The notes under the pieces were generated by a model, which saw only the letters and a program-made list of their open reading frames with translations, had not been told where the DNA came from and did not search any database. Below, piece by piece: positions 521 to 58,182 of a stretch of DNA of 64,000 bases. The position numbers and the translations under genes are program-made. The first letter of the stretch is position 1; each line of letters starts with the position of its first letter. The DNA is from Moniliella sp. 'wahieum'. Taxonomy: Eukaryota. The DNA is taken from assembly GCA_003971905.1 (NCBI GenBank), contig RSEE01000016.1, forward strand, positions 124,001-188,000, read 5' to 3'.

Positions 521-965
521 TAACCGGTGACTACTGAGTACTGAGTACTGATTAAATTACTGATTAATGATTAAGTCGATTAAGCTTAAGCTTTAAGGAT
601 TAACGATTCGTGACGCGTGACCCATGTTTCGGGACAAGCAGGGTGCGTCAGGCGTCACTCGTCACGCATGTATGGTCTCAGATGTGGTTCACCCGGTGAG
701 CGCTCAGTGAGCTCAGCGCTCAGCCGGAAACGGTTACATGCAAGTCATGCACTGCTGCAGATGCATCATGCATCACCTGCATCAACATCATACGCTCCAT
801 GCATTCTCCACACCATACCCATACATCACATGCATCACACATCAGCCACCCCAACCTATCTGACCGCAACGCTGGTCCCCATCGCCACGGATGGAGCTGA
901 GGAAGGGAGCAGATGGTAGGGCCAGCCATCAGGCCTGAGTCAGGCCTCAGGCCCAGGCCTCAGGA
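521..965. repeat. cluster of TRA + 4-bp-palindrome heptamers
   Basis: TAACCGG, TGAGTAC x2, TGATTAA, TAAGCT, TGACGCG, TGAGCGC/TCAGCGC, TCATGCA, TCAGGCC. Confidence 0.8.
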
Positions 966-3337: not shown

Positions 3338-3985
3338 ATGATCCCCGACACCCACGTCCGCAACCAACCAGCTGTGGAGGAAGAGGATGGGTCGAGGCGC
3401 TGGGGAAGGCGCTGCGCACCGACTACCGCGTGATAGGGCCCGGAGCACTCGGAGGATCAGGAATGGAGGTGGACCACACGTTGCGCGGCACGGAAAGGCA
3501 GGAGGCGCAAAGCGCGTACCGGAGGCGGTGCATGTGAGACCACCGCGACGCCTTTGGAGCGCCGGGAGAAGGAGCTGTTGCTTCGGCTGCTGGAACAAGC
3601 AAAATGCAACAAGAACGCCAAGGATCAGGGACGCACCCAAGAGCCGTTTTCCCCTGGTCTTGACGACGCGAGGATACTACGGCACCAAGACAGCGGGCAA
3701 GATGCTTGGGCACTGGAAGGATTTGACTACTGTCTCTCAATGGAAACGGTTCCTCGCTCGGATGTCTACCACGTTCATCCGTATCCACACGTGCTACCTC
3801 GGGTATAGGGACGGATGTGGCGGGCACAAGAGGATCCTGATATCCTGGCGATTCCCCTGGTTCCTTAAGCCAGGTTGACGCTATACTAAGCAGCACACGC
3901 AAGATGAACGAGTCGGTTTAGGCGTAGCGTTTCCCTGTCCCACAGCCTTAAGCTCTGTCAATGATATGGATGCAAATATAGATAT
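3338..3985 (+). mobile_element. degenerate 3' end of a CRE/Cnl1-like non-LTR retrotransposon (restriction-like endonuclease domain plus 3' tail)
   Basis: Joined frames read LRTDYRVIGPGALGGSGMEVDHTL ... LLEQAKCNKNAKDQGRTQEPF/FPLVLTTRGYYGTKTAGKMLGHWKD ... WKRFLARMSTTFIR. This fits the RLE pattern R.D...D.T / K..KY / F.PLV.T.GG. Parts recur at 6851-6944 and 22822-22891. Confidence 0.6.
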
Positions 3986-5688
3986 TGGTGTTGATCGATG
4001 AACGATGATCAGCCATTCATTTATTGCCGATCATCAATCAACACATGTAATACACATGTGAGACGCGCTTGATGAGCTGGATGCTGGGCTTGCCCTGTGG
4101 CCGTTTTTCTTTCTCTCCCCAGAGCATGAAACATATTTTTCACCAATAACTATATTTTGTCTCCGTATGTGTGTCTCTGTGTGCTTTTGTTTGGGAGACC
4201 AGATAGCAATCGGTACCCGTATTACCCAGTACTCAACAGTACTCGGTATATCCTGGTTAAATAGTCAAAAACACATGACAGTGAACTCATGTCTCGACAG
4301 TGACTGTCACAGTCACCGGGGCTAAGGCGAGGGAGACCAGAATCGGGACTAGGCCAAGGGGTGTAGCAATCGTTCGTGGGGAAGAAGCAAGATCAGAGGA
4401 CATGGTGCGAAATGGAAACAGGGAAGGAGCGAGACGCTCGAGACGAAGAAATCGGAAATGGGAGCGAGATCAGCGCCAGCTGAACTATGACAGTGACGTA
4501 ATACTGTTGTTCATTTTTTAATTGCATGTGGCAGCTCGCGATTTGTGCACATAAAAAATGGAGATTGTAATAGTCGCGGGCGATACGAGTGGGGCCAAGT
4601 ACCAAGAGAAGCAACGGATGTGCTGCGATGGGAAAGGAAGAGGATCGGCGAAGAGAGGTGAGAAGATTTACCTGATTAGCTAATAGGACCGTGACGGAGA
4701 CAGTAAATTAAATACCTTACTTCCTTCTTGAAAAGGAATGTCTGAATCCTACTGCACGGTAACCGGTAACCGGTAAGGTCTAAGGCCTAAGGCTTAAGGC
4801 GTGACATATGCAAGGAATGCCCGAATCCCCAACCGAGCTTGGGATACGATACCAATGTCACTATCCCACGGTGTGATGTGCCACAAGTCGGCCAGAACGT
4901 CTCGCCAAGGCCTCTGCTGTTGGTCAGGCAAAAAAAATGCTTCTTGTATTACGTCTATTTTATCACATGTCTCACAAAATGACGATCTCTCTTGTGTCTG
5001 ACACAGCTTCATGGCGGTTTTATAGCTGTACTCACATCACTGTCTGGTCTTCTCGCAAGGGTCTCAGCTCAGCCTCCGTTACTATCGATTGATGCTTTGA
5101 CCACAGCGATAGGGTCGGAAATGAAGGAGGCTAAAAAGTTGGGCTCCGGAAGTGTGTGTAGAATGCCCGGAGGAAGGAGCTGCTGGCACGGGGCGGGCCC
5201 GCCAGGGCCTCGCTCAGGTTTGTGGGGTATACAATTTAAGAGACGGTAGGTACTCACACGGTAGTTTCGGGCTCGGCTAGTTGGTGCAGTCGTCGCAAAG
5301 ATACTGAAAGCTTGTGTCCTTACACTACCGACCCCTTTTTGATAGTGTACACGTCATCGATATCCACCGTGGCCTTGATGTCGCTGATGTCAGAAACTTA
5401 TTTATTCTGGCATCCAGGATGTCAGCGCCATCTCGGCTCCCCTTGCTATCCCTCGGGTCAAGGACGCGAGTGAGGTCAAAATCTGTTATCGGCGACCACA
5501 AGGACTCATGCCATCAGTTTCAAGCTTCAATGTGAAAGCAAAAGTCAATGGTCCCTGGATCTGCTTATGCAACCTCGATGGTGGCCGGTAAGGGGCAGGC
5601 ACCCTCGCATCGTATCTTGGGCGAGGCGATGGCCCCGTGTTCCGCGCGTGTTCCGCTGTTGACTGTGATCCTGCAGCTGTTCTTACCC

Positions 5689-5762
5689 GGCTCGATAGCG
5701 TAGTGTGGTAACGCATCCCTGGCCAATAGGCGATGACATGGGTTCGAATCCCATTCAAGCCT
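5689..5762 (+). tRNA. tRNA-like gene with aberrant anticodon arm (pseudo-tRNA, isotype undetermined)
   Basis: Acceptor GGCTCGA/TCAAGCC (1 mismatch), D-stem GCGT/ACGC, T-arm ATGGG-TTCGAAT-CCCAT, TTTTT immediately downstream. Anticodon arm TCCCT-GGCCAAT-AGGCG is imperfect. Confidence 0.7.
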
Positions 5763-6181
5763 CTTTTTCCTCATGTTTCCCCGGGTGTGCCCTCCCACAC
5801 CGCCTTCCTTGGATGTGTTTGCCACGTATTCGCTGCTTTCGCCACAGTTGACCAACGATGGGCCAGACATTTGTGCTCCATGCACACACCACTTTTCTTT
5901 GCATCTCGTCCAAGTAAGCGATCTGTGGGCGACCGTGACCCGTGACGAGACCTGGAGTCCAGATGGTCCTGGAGGGTGATGCAATCGCACTGGTGGTGGT
6001 GGTCTAAGCCAACCAGCAACGCCTACAGAGGAACATCAAAAGCAGTGAGTCGCCACCAGGGGCTAAGCTGCGGAACCAGGAAAAACAGGAGAGAAAACAA
6101 CGGAACTCCCAGGCCTGAGGAGAAACTGAAGGGGCATTGGCCAAAGCACGAGCCACCTGATGGCTCAAGACCGATGCGCCT

Positions 6182-6490
6182 CACTAGGAGACCACCGGGC
6201 CCACTGTTGCCACGTGGCTGGCTAGGTCTTCTGCAGTTAGCTTACCTACTCAAAAGCTTTTGTTTTCTTCTTGTAGCAACGCCTGTATTGCCTTGCCTCA
6301 CCTGTATCCCGCTCCCGCTTATATACTCGATACTCCTCTCTCTCTCCGCTGTATTCGCTGTCTGCATCGTAGAGATGTTGGTGCTCGCTTGCGTTCTGGC
6401 ATACTTGCGTCGCTACACCACGGCCCGGTTTGCTGAGGCTTCGCCCCAGCCTGTTGGGCTGGGTCACCGTCGCCACCGTAGCCACCGTTC
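6182..6490 (+). repeat. dispersed repeat shared with 22524-22640 (possible retroelement terminal repeat)
   Basis: CACTAGRAGACCACCGGGCC, ACGGCCCGGT...GGCTTCGCCCCA and CCGTCGCCACCGTAGCCACCG occur in the same order at both sites. Confidence 0.65.
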
Positions 6491-6850
6491 CCCTAGAGAT
6501 ACGCGCTGGCTGGGTGGACTGGAACGTGGCACACATCAGCTGATGTAAAAGTGTACAGGGGCGGTTCCCATTTCCCGTTTTTTCACCCGGCCTCACGTAG
6601 TTCGAAGAGTACCGAGTACTGGTAGAGCTAGTGAAGCTTGAAGCTTGAAGAGCTAGTGAAGCGAAGCTTGAAGAGATTATCGATTGGCATGAGATCCGAT
6701 ATCGCAGTAGGTGATCAGTCGATGGCGCCGCAAGCAGCGGGCTGTACTGGTACTGAGTGTAAGGTGAATCCCACGGCATCACAATATGGTGGCGTGAGTA
6801 AAAAGGTTCTCATCGATCATCGGCCTGAGCAAAGGAGCAACTCAAATAAC

Positions 6851-6944
6851 GCAGGAGGCCCAGACCGCGTACCGGAAGGTGGTACATGAGAGCACTGCGA
6901 CGCCTTTAAAGCTCTGACAATGATAGGGATGCAGTATAGAGATA
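6851..6944 (+). mobile_element. internally deleted copy of the 3338-3985 retrotransposon relic
   Basis: 6851-6907 matches about 3498-3555, then jumps to match about 3945-3984 (GCCTT..AAGCTCTG.CAATGATA.GGATGCA.TATAGA). Confidence 0.65.
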
Positions 6945-7021
6945 ACTCCACTCCTCCTCTCAGTGGCATGGTAATTTGATGTCCTCGACCAAAGTTGCAG
7001 CACGGTGCTGAGCCACCATAA

Positions 7022-7835
7022 TCGCCAAGTGGCGCCCCACAGTATGGTAAAGGCGTAGCGCAAAAGCGCGAAACCTTTCTGGTCATTCCTTCCAATATCC
7101 TTCTTAGGGGGCAGGAGTATTCTTTAGCCTCTGTATTTTCTTGACTCTTGATACGAAGGCGCTGCGATGTCTCCCGATGCAGAGCCCCTCATGTCATAGG
7201 CTTACTAGCACGTCTTCAGTCTACATAGGCTAGCAAGAGAGAGCTTATCTATCCATGCAGCTGGCATCCTTCGCAGCCCGCTCAATATATGGGCGCATGA
7301 GTACGATGCTTTGTTCCCATTGCGCCCACAGTCTTGGCAGAACCCTTTATCTGCTGCGGCCCACCGGACCGCGGACTTGACAGAACAGACTGCGCTTTAT
7401 GCCTTACTATTGTAGCTCTCTCTTGCTAGGCTATGTAGAGACTGAGTACTGACGTGTTTGGAAGAGATGCCTACGAAATGCGGGGCTCTGCGTCATGAGA
7501 GATACCGCAGCTCCCCGTAACATCTCTGTAGCTCATGCGCTCATGTGCAAAATTATGCAATACACCGTCAACTGACTGCTCTCTGGTCTTCCACATCATT
7601 ACTCAGCCCACCGGACACGGTCCGTGCGCTAGTATGTCCGTCGAAGCGGAGGGTGCACTACATAGTGCAAACACTTGCGCTATCTATATATACAGTTGGA
7701 GCAGGGTGTATACTAGGCCAAGTGCCAGTCGCCAAGTGGCGCCACAGTAGGGTAAAGGCGCAGGCTAAGGGACCCTTCCTTATCATTCCTTCCAACATTC
7801 TTCCTGGAGGGCAGGAGTATATTCTCTAGCCTGTA
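7022..7835 (+). repeat. ~110-bp imperfect direct repeats at 7022-7134 and 7729-7835
   Basis: TCGCCAAGTGGCGCC..ACAGTA.GGTAAAGGCG ... TCATTCCTTCCAA.AT.CTTC...GGGCAGGAGTAT..TAGCCT is present twice. Confidence 0.8.
7150..7524. mobile_element. MITE-like foldback element with ~100-bp imperfect inverted arms
   Basis: 7221-7245 CTACATAGGCTAGCAAGAGAGAGCT is 24/25 identical to the reverse complement of 7414-7438. Similarity extends outwards (GCAGAGCCCC / GGGGCTCTGC). No ORF. Confidence 0.65.
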
Positions 7836-9249
7836 CTGTAGCTTTCATGTGCAATGTTAGTAGTACTAGTATCGGTTATTAAGGGCGAGGCCAGCTCTTA
7901 TTCATCCCACCTCCTGAACGCTTTCGGACCCCGCAAGTCTCGATATGGCTCCCATCAGACCCGATGTGGATATTTGATGACAGCCATGGCCTAGCGAGGC
8001 AACCAGACTGCATCCAGGACCAACAGGACGACATCCGCGCACACCTCGGCCATACGTTTGTTCACCTCCAAGCCGACTTCCAAGCCGGGGCCAGCCGCCT
8101 GTTGGAGAGCATGACGTGCCCGACACCCATGTGGAGGGTCATGATCCGACTCCAAGATCAGGTCACAGACGTTCGCGAAGCCCTAAGTGGAGTAAACGAA
8201 ATGCAACATGAACTCCATGAAGCCCAAAACAGAAAATTCTTCATGAGATCATGACAGGGACGGCCACGTCGCAGGCCACTACGAGCGAAGACGCAGAAAA
8301 GCGGACTCGAGATGCTGTTGGCCAAGTCCGCCCTATATCTGTATGCCTCCATTTTTCATCTTCAGATGATTAATCTTAAGGCTGACCACAGCATCTTTTC
8401 CGTTTAACCGCATTTTGGTTTTGCAGCGCAAGTACATTAAACAGCTAGTCATGTGTTGATGAAAGCGCCTTGGGAAGCGTCTCATCTAGAAGGCTCCTGT
8501 GCGGTATGTATCTATCTTGAATCGCTCGAGACCGAGCTTTCTCTGTGACAAACGGATGGTTTGGTTGAGCAGGAATGGGCCAAAACTCACGTTGCCAAAC
8601 CCAGGCCTTCTGGCACCGTTATCGATGTTGCAACTGTGATGATAAAGGGTGCCTAGGCAAAGAAGAGTATGGGCAAGAATAACGCGAGCCATAACGGTCA
8701 TCCGCTATGAGATCCTAACTAATGTGCGTATCTTCATTTGGTTCCTTTCCCCTTCACGGTACGTTCTGAACGCTTCTGCCCGAATCCACTTGCAGGTGGA
8801 GACGCACCACTGAGAGTAAGTAAGGCACCGTGGGCCCACATCGGGTGCTGTCAGTGTCGCCTCATTCAAAAGAAGGTTGTCAAACATAACCTGGGAGACT
8901 ATGGTCGCAACCTCAACGCGTGGAGGGCAGCAAGCTTGCGATGCGCATTCGCATCCTCCTTTATTCTGATTCGATTTGCTGAATATACGACCAGGTGGAG
9001 AAGCTGTCGAACGGACTTTGAAACCAGCTGGGGCATTTCGCTGGATGCCATCCCTGACTCTGATGCAACGGTACCCGCTGAGGCAGCGGCTGTGATGCTA
9101 ACCTTTCGAACACATGTGGCGACCGGGCCCGATATGCAATACCAATCTATCCAAATACCACAGATCTCCTTTTTTGTGGTTTAATGATAGGATTAGCCAT
9201 ATTATTGGATAGTCCCCCATTGGCAAGAAACGTGTACGCAACAGGAGTC

Positions 9250-9702
9250 ATAGTCTCGATGTCGACAGTGTCATCGGGAGACATTGATGTCGGGGTACCC
9301 GGGGACATCTATGCCATCGTTGGAGACCTATTACCCCTATGGTATCACCCACGTCAATGACACCGCCGACGTCTAAGCTCCCCCCGACGTCCAAGTCACT
9401 CACGACGTCTAAGGCACTCATGACGTCTAAGGCATCTTTGGTAGTGCTGTCATCGCGACATATTTGACGTGAACCCTATCATTGATAGGGCGTAACCCTT
9501 TGATGTTTTCCCCGATGTCTTTGATAAATTGAGCGAGTCTCGCATCCATGTCGCCAATGACATCCATTTCGTATCTGACATCATGGACATCACTACCGTC
9601 CCCGTCATCGAGAACAGCTGCGTTATTTACTTGATGTCTATGACACCAAAGTTCTGGTCCTACATCCATGACCGTCATGACCGTCATGACTGCCATGGAT
9701 GT
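9250..9702. repeat. degenerate 9/18-bp periodic minisatellite (GACGTC/GACATC cores)
   Basis: GACGTC at 9368, 9386, 9404 and 9422 (exact 18-bp spacing); CATGACCGT tandem near 9667-9690; many GACATC/GATGTC copies. Confidence 0.7.
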
Positions 9703-10437
9703 CAGAAAGGGGTCGGTAATGTATTTAGGTCATCTGACTTGGACTTGGGCGGGGGGCGATTATTTTGTCTCGGATGCATGTCCCCTCGGGCCATCGTATC
9801 TGATTTAACCAACCATCATCATACTTGGTTGGACTTCGGAGCGCGCTCCACTGGTGTGCAGAGCAAGCAGACCTTCGGTTGCTCGGACCATCTCGGCTCC
9901 AACGCAGCCCCTAACAGCTGCCAGGCTGTGTGAGCAGGCGAATTGGGAGGACGGTAACTATATTAATCGCCAGTTTGCACAGGCCAGCGAGATGGTCCGC
10001 TGTCTCGTCATCCGCCGGTAATCGATAATCCGATAAACGGCCTAACCCACCGTTAAAGTTATGTCTGTCGACATTCCAGTGTGTTAGTACTATGTATGCG
10101 ACAGTGCACCGTGTTGAGCTGGGTGGTTGGACTAGGTATACAGCAAATTATTCAAGGCTGTCGCTGCTGGACACAGCAAACGAGAGATGTGCGAATGAGT
10201 ACATCCGACAAAACCGTTTCAGGGACTGAACAGATGCATACAGGGGAGACGCGGCGAAGGAAAGGGCATGAGCAAAGAACCGGATGAGAGAGAGACGAAG
10301 AGGTACCAGCCAATAGGCCAGACCTACAGGATAGGACAAGAGGACCCGGTAGCGAGAGATACAAAAGGGCGAGGATCCAGCTTCACAAAAGGGGGGGAGA
10401 CAGGAACGAGTGTATCCAGTCTGCGCCGTATGACTGC

Positions 10438-11950: not shown

Positions 11951-12239
11951 GATGATGGGTGGTGGTGGTGGGGTGGACGAACGAGCTGGGTGGGGCGGGT
12001 GGGAGGAGGTTTTGGGCTGTGGTGGGCTGGTTGCTGCCAATGCCCGCTGCTCGTGGCTCCTACGCCGCATGGGGGGCATACGGGGCGCAGGCAGCCACAC
12101 TGGCCCCAGGCTGTGTCTCCTGGGGTGTCCGACGCAGCGGCAGTGGCGCCGTGCAGAGACCGCTGCGACGGGTGAGGCCGAGGGGTGTGCTATCTGACGC
12201 ATGATTTGCGACAGAGGGCCACAATCGGAGCGGGTGATG

Positions 12240-15095
12240 CATTCAAGCTTTCAAGCGGCAACTTCGTGGCCGCAGGCCTCTCAGGATCTCAGGCGCTCAG
12301 CGGCTCAGCGCTCAGCCGCTGATCCTAGTGGATCTGAGATCTGACATTTGCAGGCGGGAAGTGCGCGCAGATGCGCGCTCGCTGAGCGCAGCGGGTAGTA
12401 GACTGCGTCACGCGCCATTTCCCCCCACCCGTGGTGCTCGTTTGCAGGCAGTATGGCTGGTGCTTGGACAGTGCTTGGGCGGACTCTGCGTGACCGGTGT
12501 GACGCGTGACGCGTGACTTGAAGCTTGACCGGTGACATGCGCCTCAGATAGTCCCTACAGGTCTCTGCTCGCATGGGGGCTTGGGTCACATGCATCACAT
12601 GACACTTCCCTCGTGGCTCGGCACCCCCACACCACAGCCCCATGCAACCACACCATGTATCATTCATCGCCCGCATCCTAGCGACGCGTGAAGCGCGACG
12701 CCAGCACTCGGCCAAATGATGCACAGACATGATGCGTGATGCGTGATGCATGATGCGCGGCTCTGACGCATGATGTTTGTTGCATAAATGTGTGATGTGA
12801 CATTGGTGACTAGGTGACTGCGCCAAGCCAGCCGCACAATTTGAGATTCTGATATCCGAGGTTCTCAGAATTCACCATTCTGATGCTCGGCGCTCGGCCT
12901 CAGCCTGAGGCCCTCAGCCTGAGGCCGGAGGCTAGATACTGGCCAAGCCCCAGGCTTGACAAAGTAATACTCGCCGCTAAATTTCAGTTCACTCAGATCT
13001 CAGAACCACACAGCTGTGCAGAGTGACGCGTGACGCGTGACGAACGTACGAGTGACAGAACCGATTGAGAACGTTTGACGCGTTGTCTGCTGTCCAAACC
13101 CTTTGGTACTTTGATCCCCACCGGGCTTGTCGTTTCGCTTCTGAAAACGGAAACGGCATTGTGCCTCTGCCTGCCCCCCCCCCCCCCCCCCCCCCCCACG
13201 ATCCCGCGTCTTCCGCTGTACTTGCCATGTTCTCCATGTGCATTGGCATGATTGATAGTCCTCGCCCACAACAGATGCACTGGGAGAGATCCCACGATCG
13301 CACGTCGAACGTAGTGAAATCCGCGTTACAACCCTGGACTGATAGTGTAGAGTACCGATATAACGCGTAACGATAGCAGATGCATACGTTGGACACTGTT
13401 GAAAAAAGCCCCAAGTGGCAAGACTGGACAAGAGCCTGTCACATGTCCGCTGTCCGCGTTCAGCGCCACCAGCCACACCAGGCCACACATATGAGCGAAA
13501 CAGTATATAAGCTACTCAGATATCGATAACCGTCAAGCTTCAAATTCGTCAAACCGAGGACACCGTACGATCGAAAATGTAGACAGTAGCGGTTACCGGT
13601 TACCCATCTGATAAAACCTGCCGGCATTAACGAAAACAGGCACGTTGGCTTGGTGCCCCCAGCATACCCCCGCTTGGCAACTGTGTGTGTGTATATAGTC
13701 ACCGTATGTGACCGGTAAGCGCTAAAAGCGCGTCGCGCTCAGCTGAGCTCAGCGGTTATGGTAGTTTTCGCACTGTATAATGAACGACGCCGGTGAACTC
13801 CACGCCGCAGCCACTCCCACTCTGTACGCCCATCGTGCATCGTCTGTAGAGCCCACATTGTGCGCTACCCATTGCAAACCTTATATCGTCCTCCGCCGGC
13901 GCCTCTGCCCCCTATTTAATAACTATGGACGGGTGCGAGAGAGCCTTCTTCCATGTGGCTCAGCGCTCGGTTGCTCAATACGCTCTCTGAGATACTCACA
14001 GAATCCATATGGTCTTTTTTGGCCCCCCTTCTCTCCTGCGTGCTTACAATTGCTGAACGCACGCCGCCGCTGTGGGGACCGCGAGCGAGCAAGCTCTGCT
14101 CTGCAACGAAAAGCCGCACACCAAGTTGCGAGCGGCCAACAGTTCGTTGTCGCGGTAGTGCGCGTAGCGTTCAACCGTTCTGTACCAGTATACTACGGCA
14201 GTGTATACTTGGGCAGGCGGGGGTTGGTGCGGTTGATGCATGTGACGCGTTGACGCAGTTGTTGCGCTTGGGCTAAGCGCTGGGCTGATGCGCTGATGGC
14301 GCTGATGCATGATGCCCAACGCATATGTTCTGTTTGATCGATGATCGATGATCGATGACCGGGATGCGGTACCGTATCGACGTATCGACAACCGGCTGAT
14401 CATGCATCATGCATTGTGCATCCTGAGCTATTCAACGTTCGTTCAACGTTCAACCATCCACCGTTTGATAATCGTATCCGAACTATGCACTGCTCCCAGA
14501 GCCGGATCACCGGGATCACCACCGCCTCCCTCGAAATCGGCGGCGATGGGACGCGGGATGAATGTGATGAACAAGTGCGGACGATCGATGACGATGGACT
14601 GTCCCAGTCCTCTGTCGGAGAGCACCACCAGCCGAGTGCAAGCCATTTAACAGAAAAACTTGCGAATGAGCCGGGTGACCGGTGACTAGTGCCCGATGAT
14701 CGATGATCTGGTGATGCAGGTGATATACCCCGGCGTGGCATAGCATCTTGGAGGGGCTGGGGGCTGCCTGAAGTTCAAGCTTGAAGCTTGAAGCTTGAAG
14801 CTTGAAGTTTAACTGAACGCATCTCGGGTCTCCGGCCACTGGCGTCACCGCGTCACCGGGCGCTGCGGCCAGGGGCATACGTACGTTGGAGCGGTGGCGC
14901 CGTGCGGATTAGAGGCGGGTGGGTTGTGGCGCTGGCGAGGCCCGAGCAGACTGGCTGAGGCCGAGCCGCCCAGTGCGACCCCCCGCTGACCCCCCCGGGG
15001 CAGAGAGCTGCGAATGTCGCAAGCGTAACCGCTGACCGCTGATCGATGAGGCAGTGAGAACAGTGCCCGGATGTCACCAGTCACGCGTCACTAGC
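12240..15095. repeat. dense field of TRA + palindrome heptamers in the divergent AT3/GT2 intergenic region
   Basis: Examples: 12491-12539 TGACCGG..TGACGCG TGACGCG..TGAAGCT TGACCGG TGACATG; 14335-14358 TGATCGA x3; 14782-14802 TGAAGCT x3. Confidence 0.85.
13174..13197. repeat. poly-C/poly-G tract (~24 nt)
   Basis: Directly visible homopolymer. Confidence 0.9.
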
Positions 15096-15390
15096 TTCAG
15101 CGCACGCCTAATTGTGTGTGATATCTATTGTGGTTTCAAGCACGGCACGGCACCAGTATCACAGCCCCCTGCACTGGCGCGGAGCAGCTCACTCGGCCAG
15201 CACCCTGGCCAGACAAAAGCGGTAGGTTCCTACACAGCTCCAGTGCCCCACCGGCACTGCCTCCCCCCCCCCCCTCGCCCGCACCTAGGCCACCGCCCAC
15301 CTCGCCTCAAAACTCGGCGCTGCCAGCCTAACTACCGCCCCTTTTTCTCCCACCACCGTCTCTCTCGGCCTACCTGGGACTGCTGCCACG

Positions 15391-21949: not shown

Positions 21950-22790
21950 AATCGGCGTACCATCATGTACCGAATCCCGCATCAGAATGTTGGGGGAAAT
22001 ATTGTCATTTTCAACGAAGGAGGCCAGAGCTGGGTGTGGCAAGCTGAAGACGCAGCTGATTGGCCCACATATGGTCCCTTCGGATCTGATCGCGCCTGGC
22101 TGGGCCAAACCCTGACGCAAACGAAGAATGGCGGAGGTGAAAAAACAGGGGAGGGCCCAAATGCGCTGGGGGGCCCAAGGGGGGCAGCACAGCTAGGCGA
22201 TGGCCAGTGGAATCCCAGAGGGTCGTGGGAAGGAGGCGCTTGCGTTTGCGTGCGGCGGTGGCTGCACCCCTGCTTTCTGTGGTGGCGCTTTGAAGAAGCG
22301 TTGCCGCTCTGGGTCCCATGTACCCTGGCATCTCGAAAGGGGGAGAAACGCCCATGGTGCTCGATACGAGGCAACCAAATGCCTGCCAAAAAGGAATGAT
22401 GTCGGTGGTGAACGTGGTAACCGGAAAAGGTTGAACGAAATTGGCCCTCAAAAGTTGGCGATTGATATGCAATCACGATCGGTTGAAATGTTTCTCTGAC
22501 TACACTGTTTTTGCTTTTGGATACACTAGAAGACCACCGGGCCTACGGCCCGGTCAGCTGGGGCTTCGCCCCACTTGGTGTGCTTGTGCTTGCTCGCCAC
22601 CTTAGCCACCGCTCCCCCGTCGCCACCGTAGCCACCGGTCCACCGTTCCACGCTGGAGAGCGGATAGTATTCACCACTACGCCTCGGGCGGAATTTTATC
22701 CCCATGTGCATCCGCCTGGCTGCGCCCGCCTGGAACGCGCCGGGTGAAACGTGCCAGGTGGCATGCTTGTGTAATTTTACGTAAAGTAAA
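21950..22790 (+). mobile_element. possible tyrosine-recombinase retroelement (DIRS/Ngaro-like) relic with terminal repeat
   Basis: PEGRGKEALAFACGGGCTP...AL and KLAIDMQSRSVEMFL weakly echo YR C-terminal motifs. These are followed by a GGGGCTTCGCCCC hairpin repeat shared with 6182-6490. Confidence 0.3.
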
Positions 22791-22821
22791 AGGGGGTCTG
22801 CGTTATGAAGCAAGTAACCCC

Positions 22822-22891
22822 CGCAAGATGAACGGTTCGGTTTAGACGTAGCGTTCCCCCTGTCCCAGCCTTAAGCTCTGTCAATGATATG
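22822..22891 (+). mobile_element. short (5'-truncated) copy of the 3' tail of the 3338-3985 element
   Basis: CGCAAGATGAACG..TCGGTTTAG.CGTAGCGTT.CCCTGTCCCA..GCCTTAAGCTCTGTCAATGATATG matches 3898-3968. Confidence 0.75.
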
Positions 22892-23060
22892 AATTCAAAG
22901 AGGTAGATGTTCTGCGGTCAAGTAGCTGTGAAGTCCCCCGGGATCCTACTCCACTCTGCCCTTTTTAAACTCTATCGTTTGTATATGTATCCGTGTACCG
23001 ACCTTTCCAGACCAAATATCTGTATCCTGTGTCGATCGACATTAAGCAAACACACAGCCC

Positions 23061-38844: not shown

Positions 38845-40126
38845 GGTGCGGGGAGAGAGTTGGGACGGAGAAGTAGAGGTGCTTGTTCGTCGCTGAGAGC
38901 GTCGCTGGGCGGGTGGGCATGACGAACTGGGGTCGAGGTAGGGATGGGGAAGGGGGGCAGGAGATGAAGGGTAGGGAATAGGCAAGCAGAACACGTGTCA
39001 GTGCATGCAAGAGCAGATGAGACGCGGAGGGTTGCGTGGAGAGGCGGTGCGAGGCAGAGAAGAAGAGAGAGACACACGGGCAGTAGCAGCCGCCATGGTG
39101 GGGCCTGTGAGGACGGGACGAGAGAGGAGGATAGAAGAGACAGCCGAAGCAGAATGGGGTGGTGGTGGGAGAGAAGGGGATGGACAGCCCCGTCGGGGGT
39201 CTGGGGGGTTGGGGCGGGAATGTGTGGGTTTTAGGTTGGTGGCTAGTACGGTGGATGATGCATGATGCATGATATATTGAGCAAGATGCTTGCCGCCTGC
39301 ACGCACTGCACCCCTGTGCTCAGAGTACGTGCAGCGGCCGACCCCCCGACAGCTCCTGGCGGCGCAGCAGCCAGCAGCAGGCCGCCGCTTAGCGCCGCTT
39401 AGCAGCCGGACCGGGGTTCGTGGGTTTTGGGTTGTGGCGACAGGTGGGGACCAGAGGACGACCAGGGGTCTATAATCGATCTAACATCCATCCCTATCAG
39501 CGCATATCAGCCCTCAAATCCAACATTCAACGTCGCTCACCGTCAAGATTCAATCCCACGTATAACAGTGGCAACAGCAAACAAGCGACCTGGATTGCTT
39601 CTCCCTCTTCGCACACGCATTTTAAAGGTGCAGAGCGCAGACTACGTATACATACCACCCGCTGTTTTGCCTACTTATACTTATCTGGATCCACGATGCG
39701 CAGGCATCAGCGCTCAGCAGTGCCCTGCCTGCCCAGCACCATCCTCCCGGCATTACCGGTTACCTAGGTCCTATACTTACCCCAGTACTTGACAGCGTCG
39801 ACAGCTTCACCGCGTCTTCTCGCTTCAATTCAAGTACCAGTGTGGAGCAAGCGGCAGTGAGACGTGACTGCGACGTCCTCACGTGTGACATGTGATGCAT
39901 GGCCAAATTACAATCATGATTTCGATGTCTCGGATTGTCACAAACATCACCTGCTCTCCACGCCACAATCTGCCCCACACTCCTCTCCCCATGAGTGCAT
40001 GAGCCACTTCCTCAGCCTCCCAGCCCATTCCGCTGGCCCATTCCGCGCTGAGCACCGCGCACAGACACGTTGCAGCAACCCGAATATAACCCCCCCTCCA
40101 TCACCATCTCCTCCTCCGCTGGCTTC

Positions 40127-57426: not shown

Positions 57427-58182
57427 CGTGTCATGGAGAGCCCAAAAGATTGGGGGGGCACTATAATGGGGTGAGGGAGACGAGCACGTACACAGTGGGG
57501 CGGCACGCGCAGCAGGGAGTAGCTGATTGGCACTGCGCATGGCGAAAGGACCTGCGAACAGCAGCAGGAGAGCAGGTGGTGGTAGTAGTACGACAGTGAT
57601 GCAAGGCAAGACAATAAGGCATTGTGTGGCGGCGGTGGCGGCGGTGGCGGATGTGGGAGTTGTGCCGCACGCCACATATCGATGATCGATGACCGTCTCC
57701 TGAGTACCTAACAAAGCATATATATCCGTCGTGCAGACCGTCGAGGTGTCTCAATGCCACCCACCGATACCCGATATGCCCTCTATTCTCGATTCTCTTT
57801 CCGCTCCACCCGCCACCAGCTGTCTGATCCCCGTTTGAGAGCAGAATAAGTTGCTCACATTGGTACGGCTCCTTCTTCACAGTGACTATGTTCGAATCCC
57901 TCTCGCCTTGGCCACGCAGAGAGAGCACATACGGAAAGGCAGAAGACTATATGTCTCTTCTCGATCGGAGTCGCGGTTTATAATCGCGTTGTCTCGATTC
58001 GCCTCGCCAGGTTCATTTTCCCATCGCTCTCGCAACAATTCCCACTGACTGTGCTGATGGCGGGAGATATGTCGATCCACATCATTGTGTTGCTGAGGGG
58101 ACAAAAGCTAACTTTTTTCGTGCGTATCTGGAAGCCTTATACTGTAGACGAGAGTAAACCCATCCGATATGGGTTTCCATCT

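Follow-up and report, generated by a model that had tools for sequence, protein, structure and literature searches.

The run of TRA trinucleotides at positions 4758-4804 of the window (the whole stretch of 64,000 nucleotides analysed here) is probably a stack of excision scars left by a cut-and-paste transposon which makes a 7-bp target duplication centred on T-N-A. As originally predicted, a TRA recurs every 7 nt while the core between successive trinucleotides switches; the last TGA extends to 4804, a single base beyond the 4803 first given.

Table 1. Heptamer arrays, single units, and elements; positions are those of the window, and C numbers denote contigs of the assembly.
Feature	Position	Strand	Remarks
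Heptamer array	4758-4804		reads GG TAA CCGG TAA CCGG TAA GGTC TAA GGCC TAA GGCT TAA GGCG TGA
Left-templated arm GG TAA CCGG TAA CCGG TAA	4758..4776	.	read from sequence
Asymmetric heptamer GG-TAA-GG, switch point	4772..4778	.	putative original target site
Right-templated arm TAA GGTC TAA GGCC TAA GGCT TAA GG	4774..4799	.	
CG TGA, in 7-nt phase, different central base	4800..4804	.	both haplotypes carry CG TGA
Array AC TGA GTAC TGA GTAC TGA, left-templated	533..551	.	
Single unit CG TGA CGCG TGA, left-templated	609..620	.	
Single unit GA TGA TCGA TGA, left-templated	57681..57692	.	
Empty site CA TCA CT	5035..5041	+	C4 haplotype: CG TCA CGCG TCA CT
Unit GA TGA TCGA TGA TC	14695..14708	+	C4: empty symmetric site
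Unit CA TCA GCGC TCA GC, right-templated	39705..39718	+	C4: empty asymmetric CA TCA GC
CACTA-type element, CACTAC ends, 2-bp duplications	5323..9721	+	at least a dozen related copies, nested small repeats
C20 element, 378 bp			7-bp duplication GATGATG
C23 inner element			7-bp duplication GATCATG
C34 element			7-bp duplication GTTGATG
C35 element			7-bp duplication CATCAAC

The array and its flank rule

In the left arm of the array the core CCGG is the reverse complement of the left flank GG followed by GG, and in the right arm GGCC is the right flank GG followed by its reverse complement. Only three of the six cores are palindromic (CCGG, CCGG, and GGCC); GGTC and GGCT are each one change away from GGCC, by mutation or read error. 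The closing CG TGA is probably flank rather than unit, its phasing presumably being due to chance. The homologous haplotype on contig C4 reads GG TAA CCGG TAA GGCC TAA GGCG TGA, with one left- and one right-templated unit; at this site the window carries 21 nt (three units) more, whether by gain in the window or by loss on C4. The C4 form GG TAA CCGG TAA GGCC TAA GG, together with the two-core rule described below, is the reason for regarding GG-TAA-GG as the probable original target. What looked like drift of the cores is one left-to-right template switch around this heptamer, plus point changes.

Of the drifting cores proposed earlier, the switch is borne out and free drift is not: all 15 arrays composed entirely of palindromic cores of more than one type show exactly two types and one switch, a test which left out 77 arrays (three or more TNA) with a non-palindromic core, the 4758-4804 array included. 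In 12 of the 15 the cores match both outer flanks. The flank-derived cores to which attention had been drawn, GG-TAA-CCGG here, AC-TGA-GTAC at 533, CG-TGA-CGCG at 609, and GA-TGA-TCGA at 57681, were all found as described.

The rule is wider than TRA, since it holds for T-N-A on both strands, with TCA and TTA included. Its form is that a site XY-TNA-ZW carries an insert of 7 nt (+7) whose core consists of one flanking dinucleotide plus its reverse complement. Analysis of 264 kb reveals a palindromic core in 239 of 441 same-centre TNA-xxxx-TNA pairs, compared with 2.9-8.2% for the 15 other classes of trinucleotide defined by first and third letter. The 19-mer GGTAACCGGTAACCGGTAA, which is the left arm of the array, occurs 139 times in the 69.5-Mb assembly, overlapping matches inside longer arrays being counted, against once for its reversed control. 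The window possesses 46 exact period-7 tandem runs, where 4.25 ± 1.5 are expected from 20 Markov simulations, and 66 junctions were counted in it.

When cores were compared with their flanks in 464 kb from contigs C16 (that of the window), C1, and other stretches, a sample which is not random, 179 of the 211 single-unit palindromic cores matched the left or the right flanking dinucleotide (the left alone in 80 cases, the right alone in 67, both in 32, and neither in 32). Permuted cores matched in 28 cases on average and in 47 at most (2000 rounds). All 16 palindromic cores were seen; therefore, no fixed element end is retained. The original prediction had set local templating against a fixed transposon end. 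Local templating is upheld by the 179 matches, but it is no argument against a transposon: the junction spectrum and a family of elements with 7-bp NN-TNA-NN duplications, both described below, point to flank-derived excision scars.

The centre base of the palindromic units is C or G in 81%, TAA/TTA centres accounting for 42 of 238, and no target preference wider than T-N-A was seen. Mixed-centre pairs such as TGA-xxxx-TCA (window 698-724, and sample-wide) also show an excess of palindromic cores (55/278), which may reflect palindromic tracts of greater length or a centre base that has decayed. The units cluster in intergenic DNA: none is found in 17.9 kb of blocks conserved with a syntenic copy on C1, and 75 in the 44.3 kb outside them. 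The intergenic stretch 12082-15195 and its C1 counterpart (940-942 kb) are not alignable, and each is dense in heptamer arrays of its own.

Haplotypes, empty sites, and junction lengths

Contig C4 (approximately 190-250 kb) is the homologous haplotype of the window, with 87-95% identity over 161 kb aligned. A third syntenic copy lies on C1 (approximately 930-975 kb), with about 80% identity in conserved blocks, and is too diverged between genes for use as an outgroup. The presence of both suggests a hybrid or polyploid genome. Comparison of the two haplotypes, in pairs without an outgroup, yielded 11 exact empty sites, nine of which are asymmetric, so that the inverted dinucleotide does not come from slippage. 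Among 21 clean 7-nt indels, chosen irrespective of the rule, TNA is duplicated in 16 and the rule is obeyed in 13. Most units are shared by the haplotypes. The 61 aligned single units on C16 comprise 53 shared (27 identical and 26 with one or two differences), four empty on C4, and four other; the 61 on C4 comprise 45 shared, seven empty, and nine other, these counts excluding units of longer arrays (80 and 84) and unaligned units (5 and 6). Indels of 1-3 nt are very common, coding DNA included.

Dispersed copies of the CACTA-type element in the window supply filled and empty versions of several units. The filled allele is mostly in the minority (one versus two, four, five, or six empty; three versus four), with exceptions at two versus two and one versus one, a distribution which favours insertion as the direction of change. 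As a source of the scars this CACTA element itself was rejected; its copies have 2-bp duplications and no TNA preference.

Several other repeats were observed. An abundant repeat family whose members share one end and vary in length is represented by pieces at window positions 3341-3985 and 22525-22904, the latter piece being absent from the C4 haplotype. Elements of about 845 bp with TG..CA ends and 5-bp duplications, resembling solo LTRs, are found at L038:2611-3455, L054:8975-9828, and L059:414-1281. Contigs C98 and C108 (approximately 200-211 kb) give identical matches at a constant offset, which suggests that the assembly is redundant here or holds a near-identical duplicate.

In 394 of 838 junctions, compared with 234 of 12405 controls, the anchor of the palindrome lies exactly 2 nt outside the TNA (k=2); at k=3 it is found in 0/459, and at k=1 in 40/252 against 12.0% of controls. 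Flank plus palindromic bases explain 440 of the 838 +7 junctions (controls 10.6%). Longer junctions can be read as the full 7-bp duplication plus palindromic bases in 48/328 at +8 (controls 1.7%), 44/459 at +9 (0.5%), with left and right additions even, 7/276 at +10 (0.3%), and 3/305 at +11 (0.0%). These four classes, with at most two palindromic bases per side, are approximately 8- to 20-fold enriched or absent from controls. Such products would be expected if the intermediate were a 7-bp duplication hairpinned at both ends. The +4 and +5 junctions are at background level, and +6 is slightly higher. Odd-centred palindromes are mildly enriched (17/328 vs. 129/9579 controls), and junctions of the Ac/Ds form, whose centre is the complement of the neighbouring base, number 2/328 against 32/9579. 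Two marks of hairpin-type scars are present, namely even-centred additions which are the reverse complement of the flank (179/211; 394/838) and a series of junctions in which the duplication is kept and bases are added at one end or at both (+8 to +11).

A candidate family with 7-bp duplications

Scanning of loci and pattern searching revealed a family with terminal inverted repeats (TIRs) ending in CTCACTGA, of which 17 exact ends are listed. A true TIR continuation is found at 20 ends (the 17 exact and three variant), representing about 14 independent sites. Of the 20, 19 adjoin NN-TNA-NN, against a background of 4.0% and none of four chance matches without a TIR. The identification of the family rests on the TIR continuation, because the 12-base terminal pattern alone gave 14 matches versus 13 in the control, i.e., no excess. 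Matches to the end with two mismatches number 16; the six examined were three true ends and three chance matches.

Exact 7-bp duplications flank four of the seven paired elements (Table 1). The homologue of the C20 site on C22 carries a single GATGATG and no element, and therefore the duplication must be 7 bp; relative to C22, about 13 bases to the left of the duplication are also missing from C20. Three of the seven pairs have no matching 7-bp duplication. The C11 and C38 elements have two different NN-TNA-NN flanks each, and the right end of the outer C23/C8 element does not fit NN-TNA-NN.

All 20 ends begin CTCACTG. At the termini a CT stands before the canonical CACTG, and the duplication comprises TNA with two more bases on each side; compared with an ordinary CACTA element of 3-bp duplication, each of the two is shifted by 2. 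At C8:478692 an extra CT lies between the heptamer GA-TGA-AG and the element end, and the C23 homologue is without it; these two bases may have been added palindromically when an end was reopened, or they may be a read stutter of 2 nt.

Four full copies of 4.85-4.97 kb differ by 0.25-0.54% substitutions and possess a TIR of approximately 67 bp followed by short repeats. These four copies are defective but young. Of a Tnp2-like protein they keep the C-terminal half alone, interrupted by stops (profile positions 480-853 of 936, iE down to 2.6e-9). The profile was made from library matches to another PF02992 locus, two of which carry PF02992. CxxC-like and ExxH stretches are visible in the remnant, and the PF02992 stretch itself is missing. 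Four ORFs of the family copies gave no Pfam match, and no intact transposase was found among the copies.

At the 19 fitting ends the centre base is always C or G, with a lean to the cores TGCA, TCGA, and ACGT; none of these ends would yield CCGG, and none stands at a TAA/TTA site. The 4758-4804 array has TAA and CCGG, and therefore requires either a broader range of targets or a sister family. A left end is present at C16:193641, 5.6 kb past the window's end; both haplotypes carry it, and no Tnp2-like sequence was found near it. No clear case of an element on one homologue and a scar on the other was found among the homologues of C20 (empty), C23/C8 (rearranged), and C16/C4 (end on both).

Searches of the assembly for the families PF13359, PF05699, PF10551, and PF18758 gave no match; their sensitivity was low, the assembly being intron-bearing and indel-rich, and two controls also rang nowhere. 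The PF02992 search gave two loci, C17:557 kb and C34:515 kb. The Tnp2-like gene at C17:556930-557982 has an orthologue at C62:282 kb, neither has a TIR, and it is possibly an immobile or domesticated transposase; 437 homologues of its ORF were obtained by full HMMER library search and none by word-based search. The gene at C34:513408-516695 covers profile positions 120-819 over several frames; no TIR was detected, and a copy of the 7-bp family lies at a distance of 8 kb. A de novo scan for TIRs and duplications over 932 kb of partly redundant loci revealed no other TIR element with 7-bp NN-TNA-NN duplications.

Proposed mechanism, alternatives, and known systems

The excision-scar model runs as follows. 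An element would insert at XY-TNA-ZW and duplicate all seven bases, a step seen in the family ending in CTCACTGA. On excision, a flush hairpin would form on each flank, sealing it at the heptamer's outer margin, and a host nuclease would open each hairpin approximately 2 nt beyond its tip, which matches the biochemistry of Pso2 and Artemis, described as opening hairpins 2 nt 3′ of the apex (PMC3299998). The products would be the 4-nt palindromic 3′ overhangs ZWW′Z′ and Y′X′XY. To judge from the junction spectrum, end joining would mostly keep one overhang and drop the other, giving +7; the retained overhang would set the left- or right-templated palindromic core, and partial trimming would give +8 to +11. 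Every scar would create new TNA targets, and since a symmetric scar would return the same core on reuse, at most two cores should occur, with one switch at the original asymmetric heptamer. Replication slippage may later add or remove units. The agent would be the EnSpm/Tnp2-like family described above or close relatives of wider target range. About 20 element ends stand against about 59,000 junctions (extrapolated from 394 per 464 kb of a non-random sample), which argues for long turnover and probably for later slippage.

The same junctions might be produced without any element if a nuclease or template switch at empty TNA sites wrote a 5-nt copy plus two inverted bases, the TIR family merely sharing the TNA preference. 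The scars are about three orders of magnitude more numerous than the element ends found, their TAA/TTA centres and CCGG core are not among the element sites, and no element-to-scar pair was seen among the homologous sites checked, all of which would suit such a process. We consider it unlikely, however: in the +8 to +11 junctions both heptamers are complete and palindromic bases have been added from one side or the other, so the 7-bp duplication must come first, and a young TIR family makes exactly this 7-bp NN-TNA-NN duplication. It is also quite improbable that most of the scars, formed by the same hairpin mechanism, trace to a different superfamily making 7-bp duplications, for instance the hAT7 of rust fungi. 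The hAT7 families are reported to make 7-bp duplications (PMC12730594), the target range of the CTCACTGA family is narrower than that of the scars, and the family searches of the assembly were insensitive, with the hAT control ringing nowhere. On the other hand, Ac/Ds-form junctions are rare (2/328 vs. 32/9579 controls), PF05699, PF10551, PF18758, and PF13359 were unmatched in that low-sensitivity search, and no second 7-bp NN-TNA-NN element appeared in the 932 kb of partly redundant loci.

Direct copying gives no inverted dinucleotide at the asymmetric empty sites (nine pairs), 16 of 16 palindromic cores occur, and units arise inside transposon copies too. These observations leave very little room for the proposal that the arrays are slippage repeats under selection as palindromic transcription-factor sites in promoters, even though the units are confined to non-conserved DNA and clustered intergenically and symmetric units are able to slip. 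As the origin of the units, slippage is refuted by the asymmetric filled and empty pairs; as a later expansion step it is possible. Remnants of fixed element ends between TNA duplications, comparable to Tc1/mariner footprints, or a sequencing artefact could be invoked since every unit duplicates TNA and the assembly is rich in 1-3-nt indels. Neither is credible: the core follows the flank, CTAG, expected from the family's ends, accounts for just 11 of 211 cores, 53 of the 61 C16 units are shared with the other haplotype, and the units shun the conserved blocks. The flank test and the sharing between haplotypes refute both.

Beyond the excision-scar reading of the array lies a broader proposition, for and against which we see the balance as even: that the elements form an undescribed lineage, related to EnSpm/Transib, which ends in CT..AG, duplicates the 7 bp of NN-TNA-NN, has moved recently, and excises by RAG-like flush hairpins, and whose tens of thousands of stereotyped scars would be rebuilding intergenic and promoter DNA as heptamer arrays. 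Were it correct, it would provide a self-targeting route to tandem repeats and a natural, genome-scale record of hairpin repair. No description of the heptamer-scar signature was found in the literature covered, which does not include most subscription journals or Repbase Reports. In 304 kb of metagenome loci seeded with one array, among the matches listed, at least 16 other units obey the rule (0.05 per kb), compared with 2.76 per kb in seeded loci of the own genome; the signature looks lineage-specific. Palindromic excision footprints are known from assays of dozens to hundreds of events, whereas here they form a major mutational signature of non-coding DNA, and the target of each can be read from it. 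Should their connection with the 7-bp family prove correct, the scars would be indirect in vivo evidence for flank-hairpin excision by EnSpm-type elements, the duplication range of that clade would widen beyond 2-5 bp, and a tandem-repeat origin unexplained by slippage alone would be at hand.

A study of mPing reportedly found precise repair after excision. P nucleotides, which arise when Artemis or Pso2 opens a flush flank hairpin (RAG1/2 coding joints, Transib, and Muta1), resemble the present scars in their even-centred, flank-templated additions of 1-2 nt and the 2-nt opening offset. The present scars differ from them in the dominance of a single product (+7), in the NN-TNA-NN target with its 7-bp duplication, and in forming arrays of heptamers through reuse or expansion. 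Hairpins at the flanks have been reported for hAT, Transib, RAG, and Muta1, being flush for Muta1, whose excision in yeast is given as more than 90% precise (PMC5499845). Ac/Ds in Candida albicans, budding yeast, and plants likewise leaves short palindromic insertions from hairpin opening and end joining, the arms being short in the fungal case. According to PMC5873905 the complement of the base adjoining the element forms the centre of its scars, whereas the palindromes here are even-centred, and this hAT footprint form is found in only 2/328. Tc1/mariner footprints keep fixed end bases, whereas here all 16 cores follow the flank; PIF/Harbinger (Tourist-like) elements make a 3-bp duplication instead of 7 bp, and PF13359 was unmatched in the low-sensitivity search. 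The 10-bp repeats of Ustilago maydis, small and intergenic, have been suggested to be transposon footprints (PMC4081816); many small intergenic repeats read as past-transposition scars are also what is seen here, a likeness of description only.

EnSpm/CACTA elements possess TIRs with subterminal repeats. The candidate family shares with EnSpm/CACTA and Plavaka (CMCT) elements the CACTG-containing TIRs, the subterminal repeats, and the Tnp2-like remnant. Most CMCT elements are described as ending in CA..TG and duplicating 2-5 bp, and EnSpm, Plavaka, Transib, and RAG1 as sharing motifs (PMC12730594). A Tnp2-type transposase is recognised by its C(2)C and H(3-4)H motifs. In contrast, the candidate has CT..AG termini, with CACTG from base 3, and a 7-bp duplication; because these termini and this duplication depart from two features of the CMCT clade, it is not filed there. 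CNIRT6 of Cryptococcus neoformans has TIRs starting CACTG, like those of the candidate, but a 3-bp duplication, and the duplication of CNEST is TA (PMC12810828). The 7-bp duplication is shared with hAT7 of Puccinia and Melampsora (PMC12730594), and Repbase includes hAT entries with duplications of this length (PMC4455052), whereas the remnant of the candidate matches Tnp2-type proteins and apparently not hAT. In mechanism the closest systems are P nucleotides of the RAG/Transib type and Ac/Ds footprints; the closest element is a fungal EnSpm such as CNIRT6, hAT7 being close in duplication length only. The candidate would appear, from its sequence features, to work like an element of the EnSpm/Transib type without being filed as a member.
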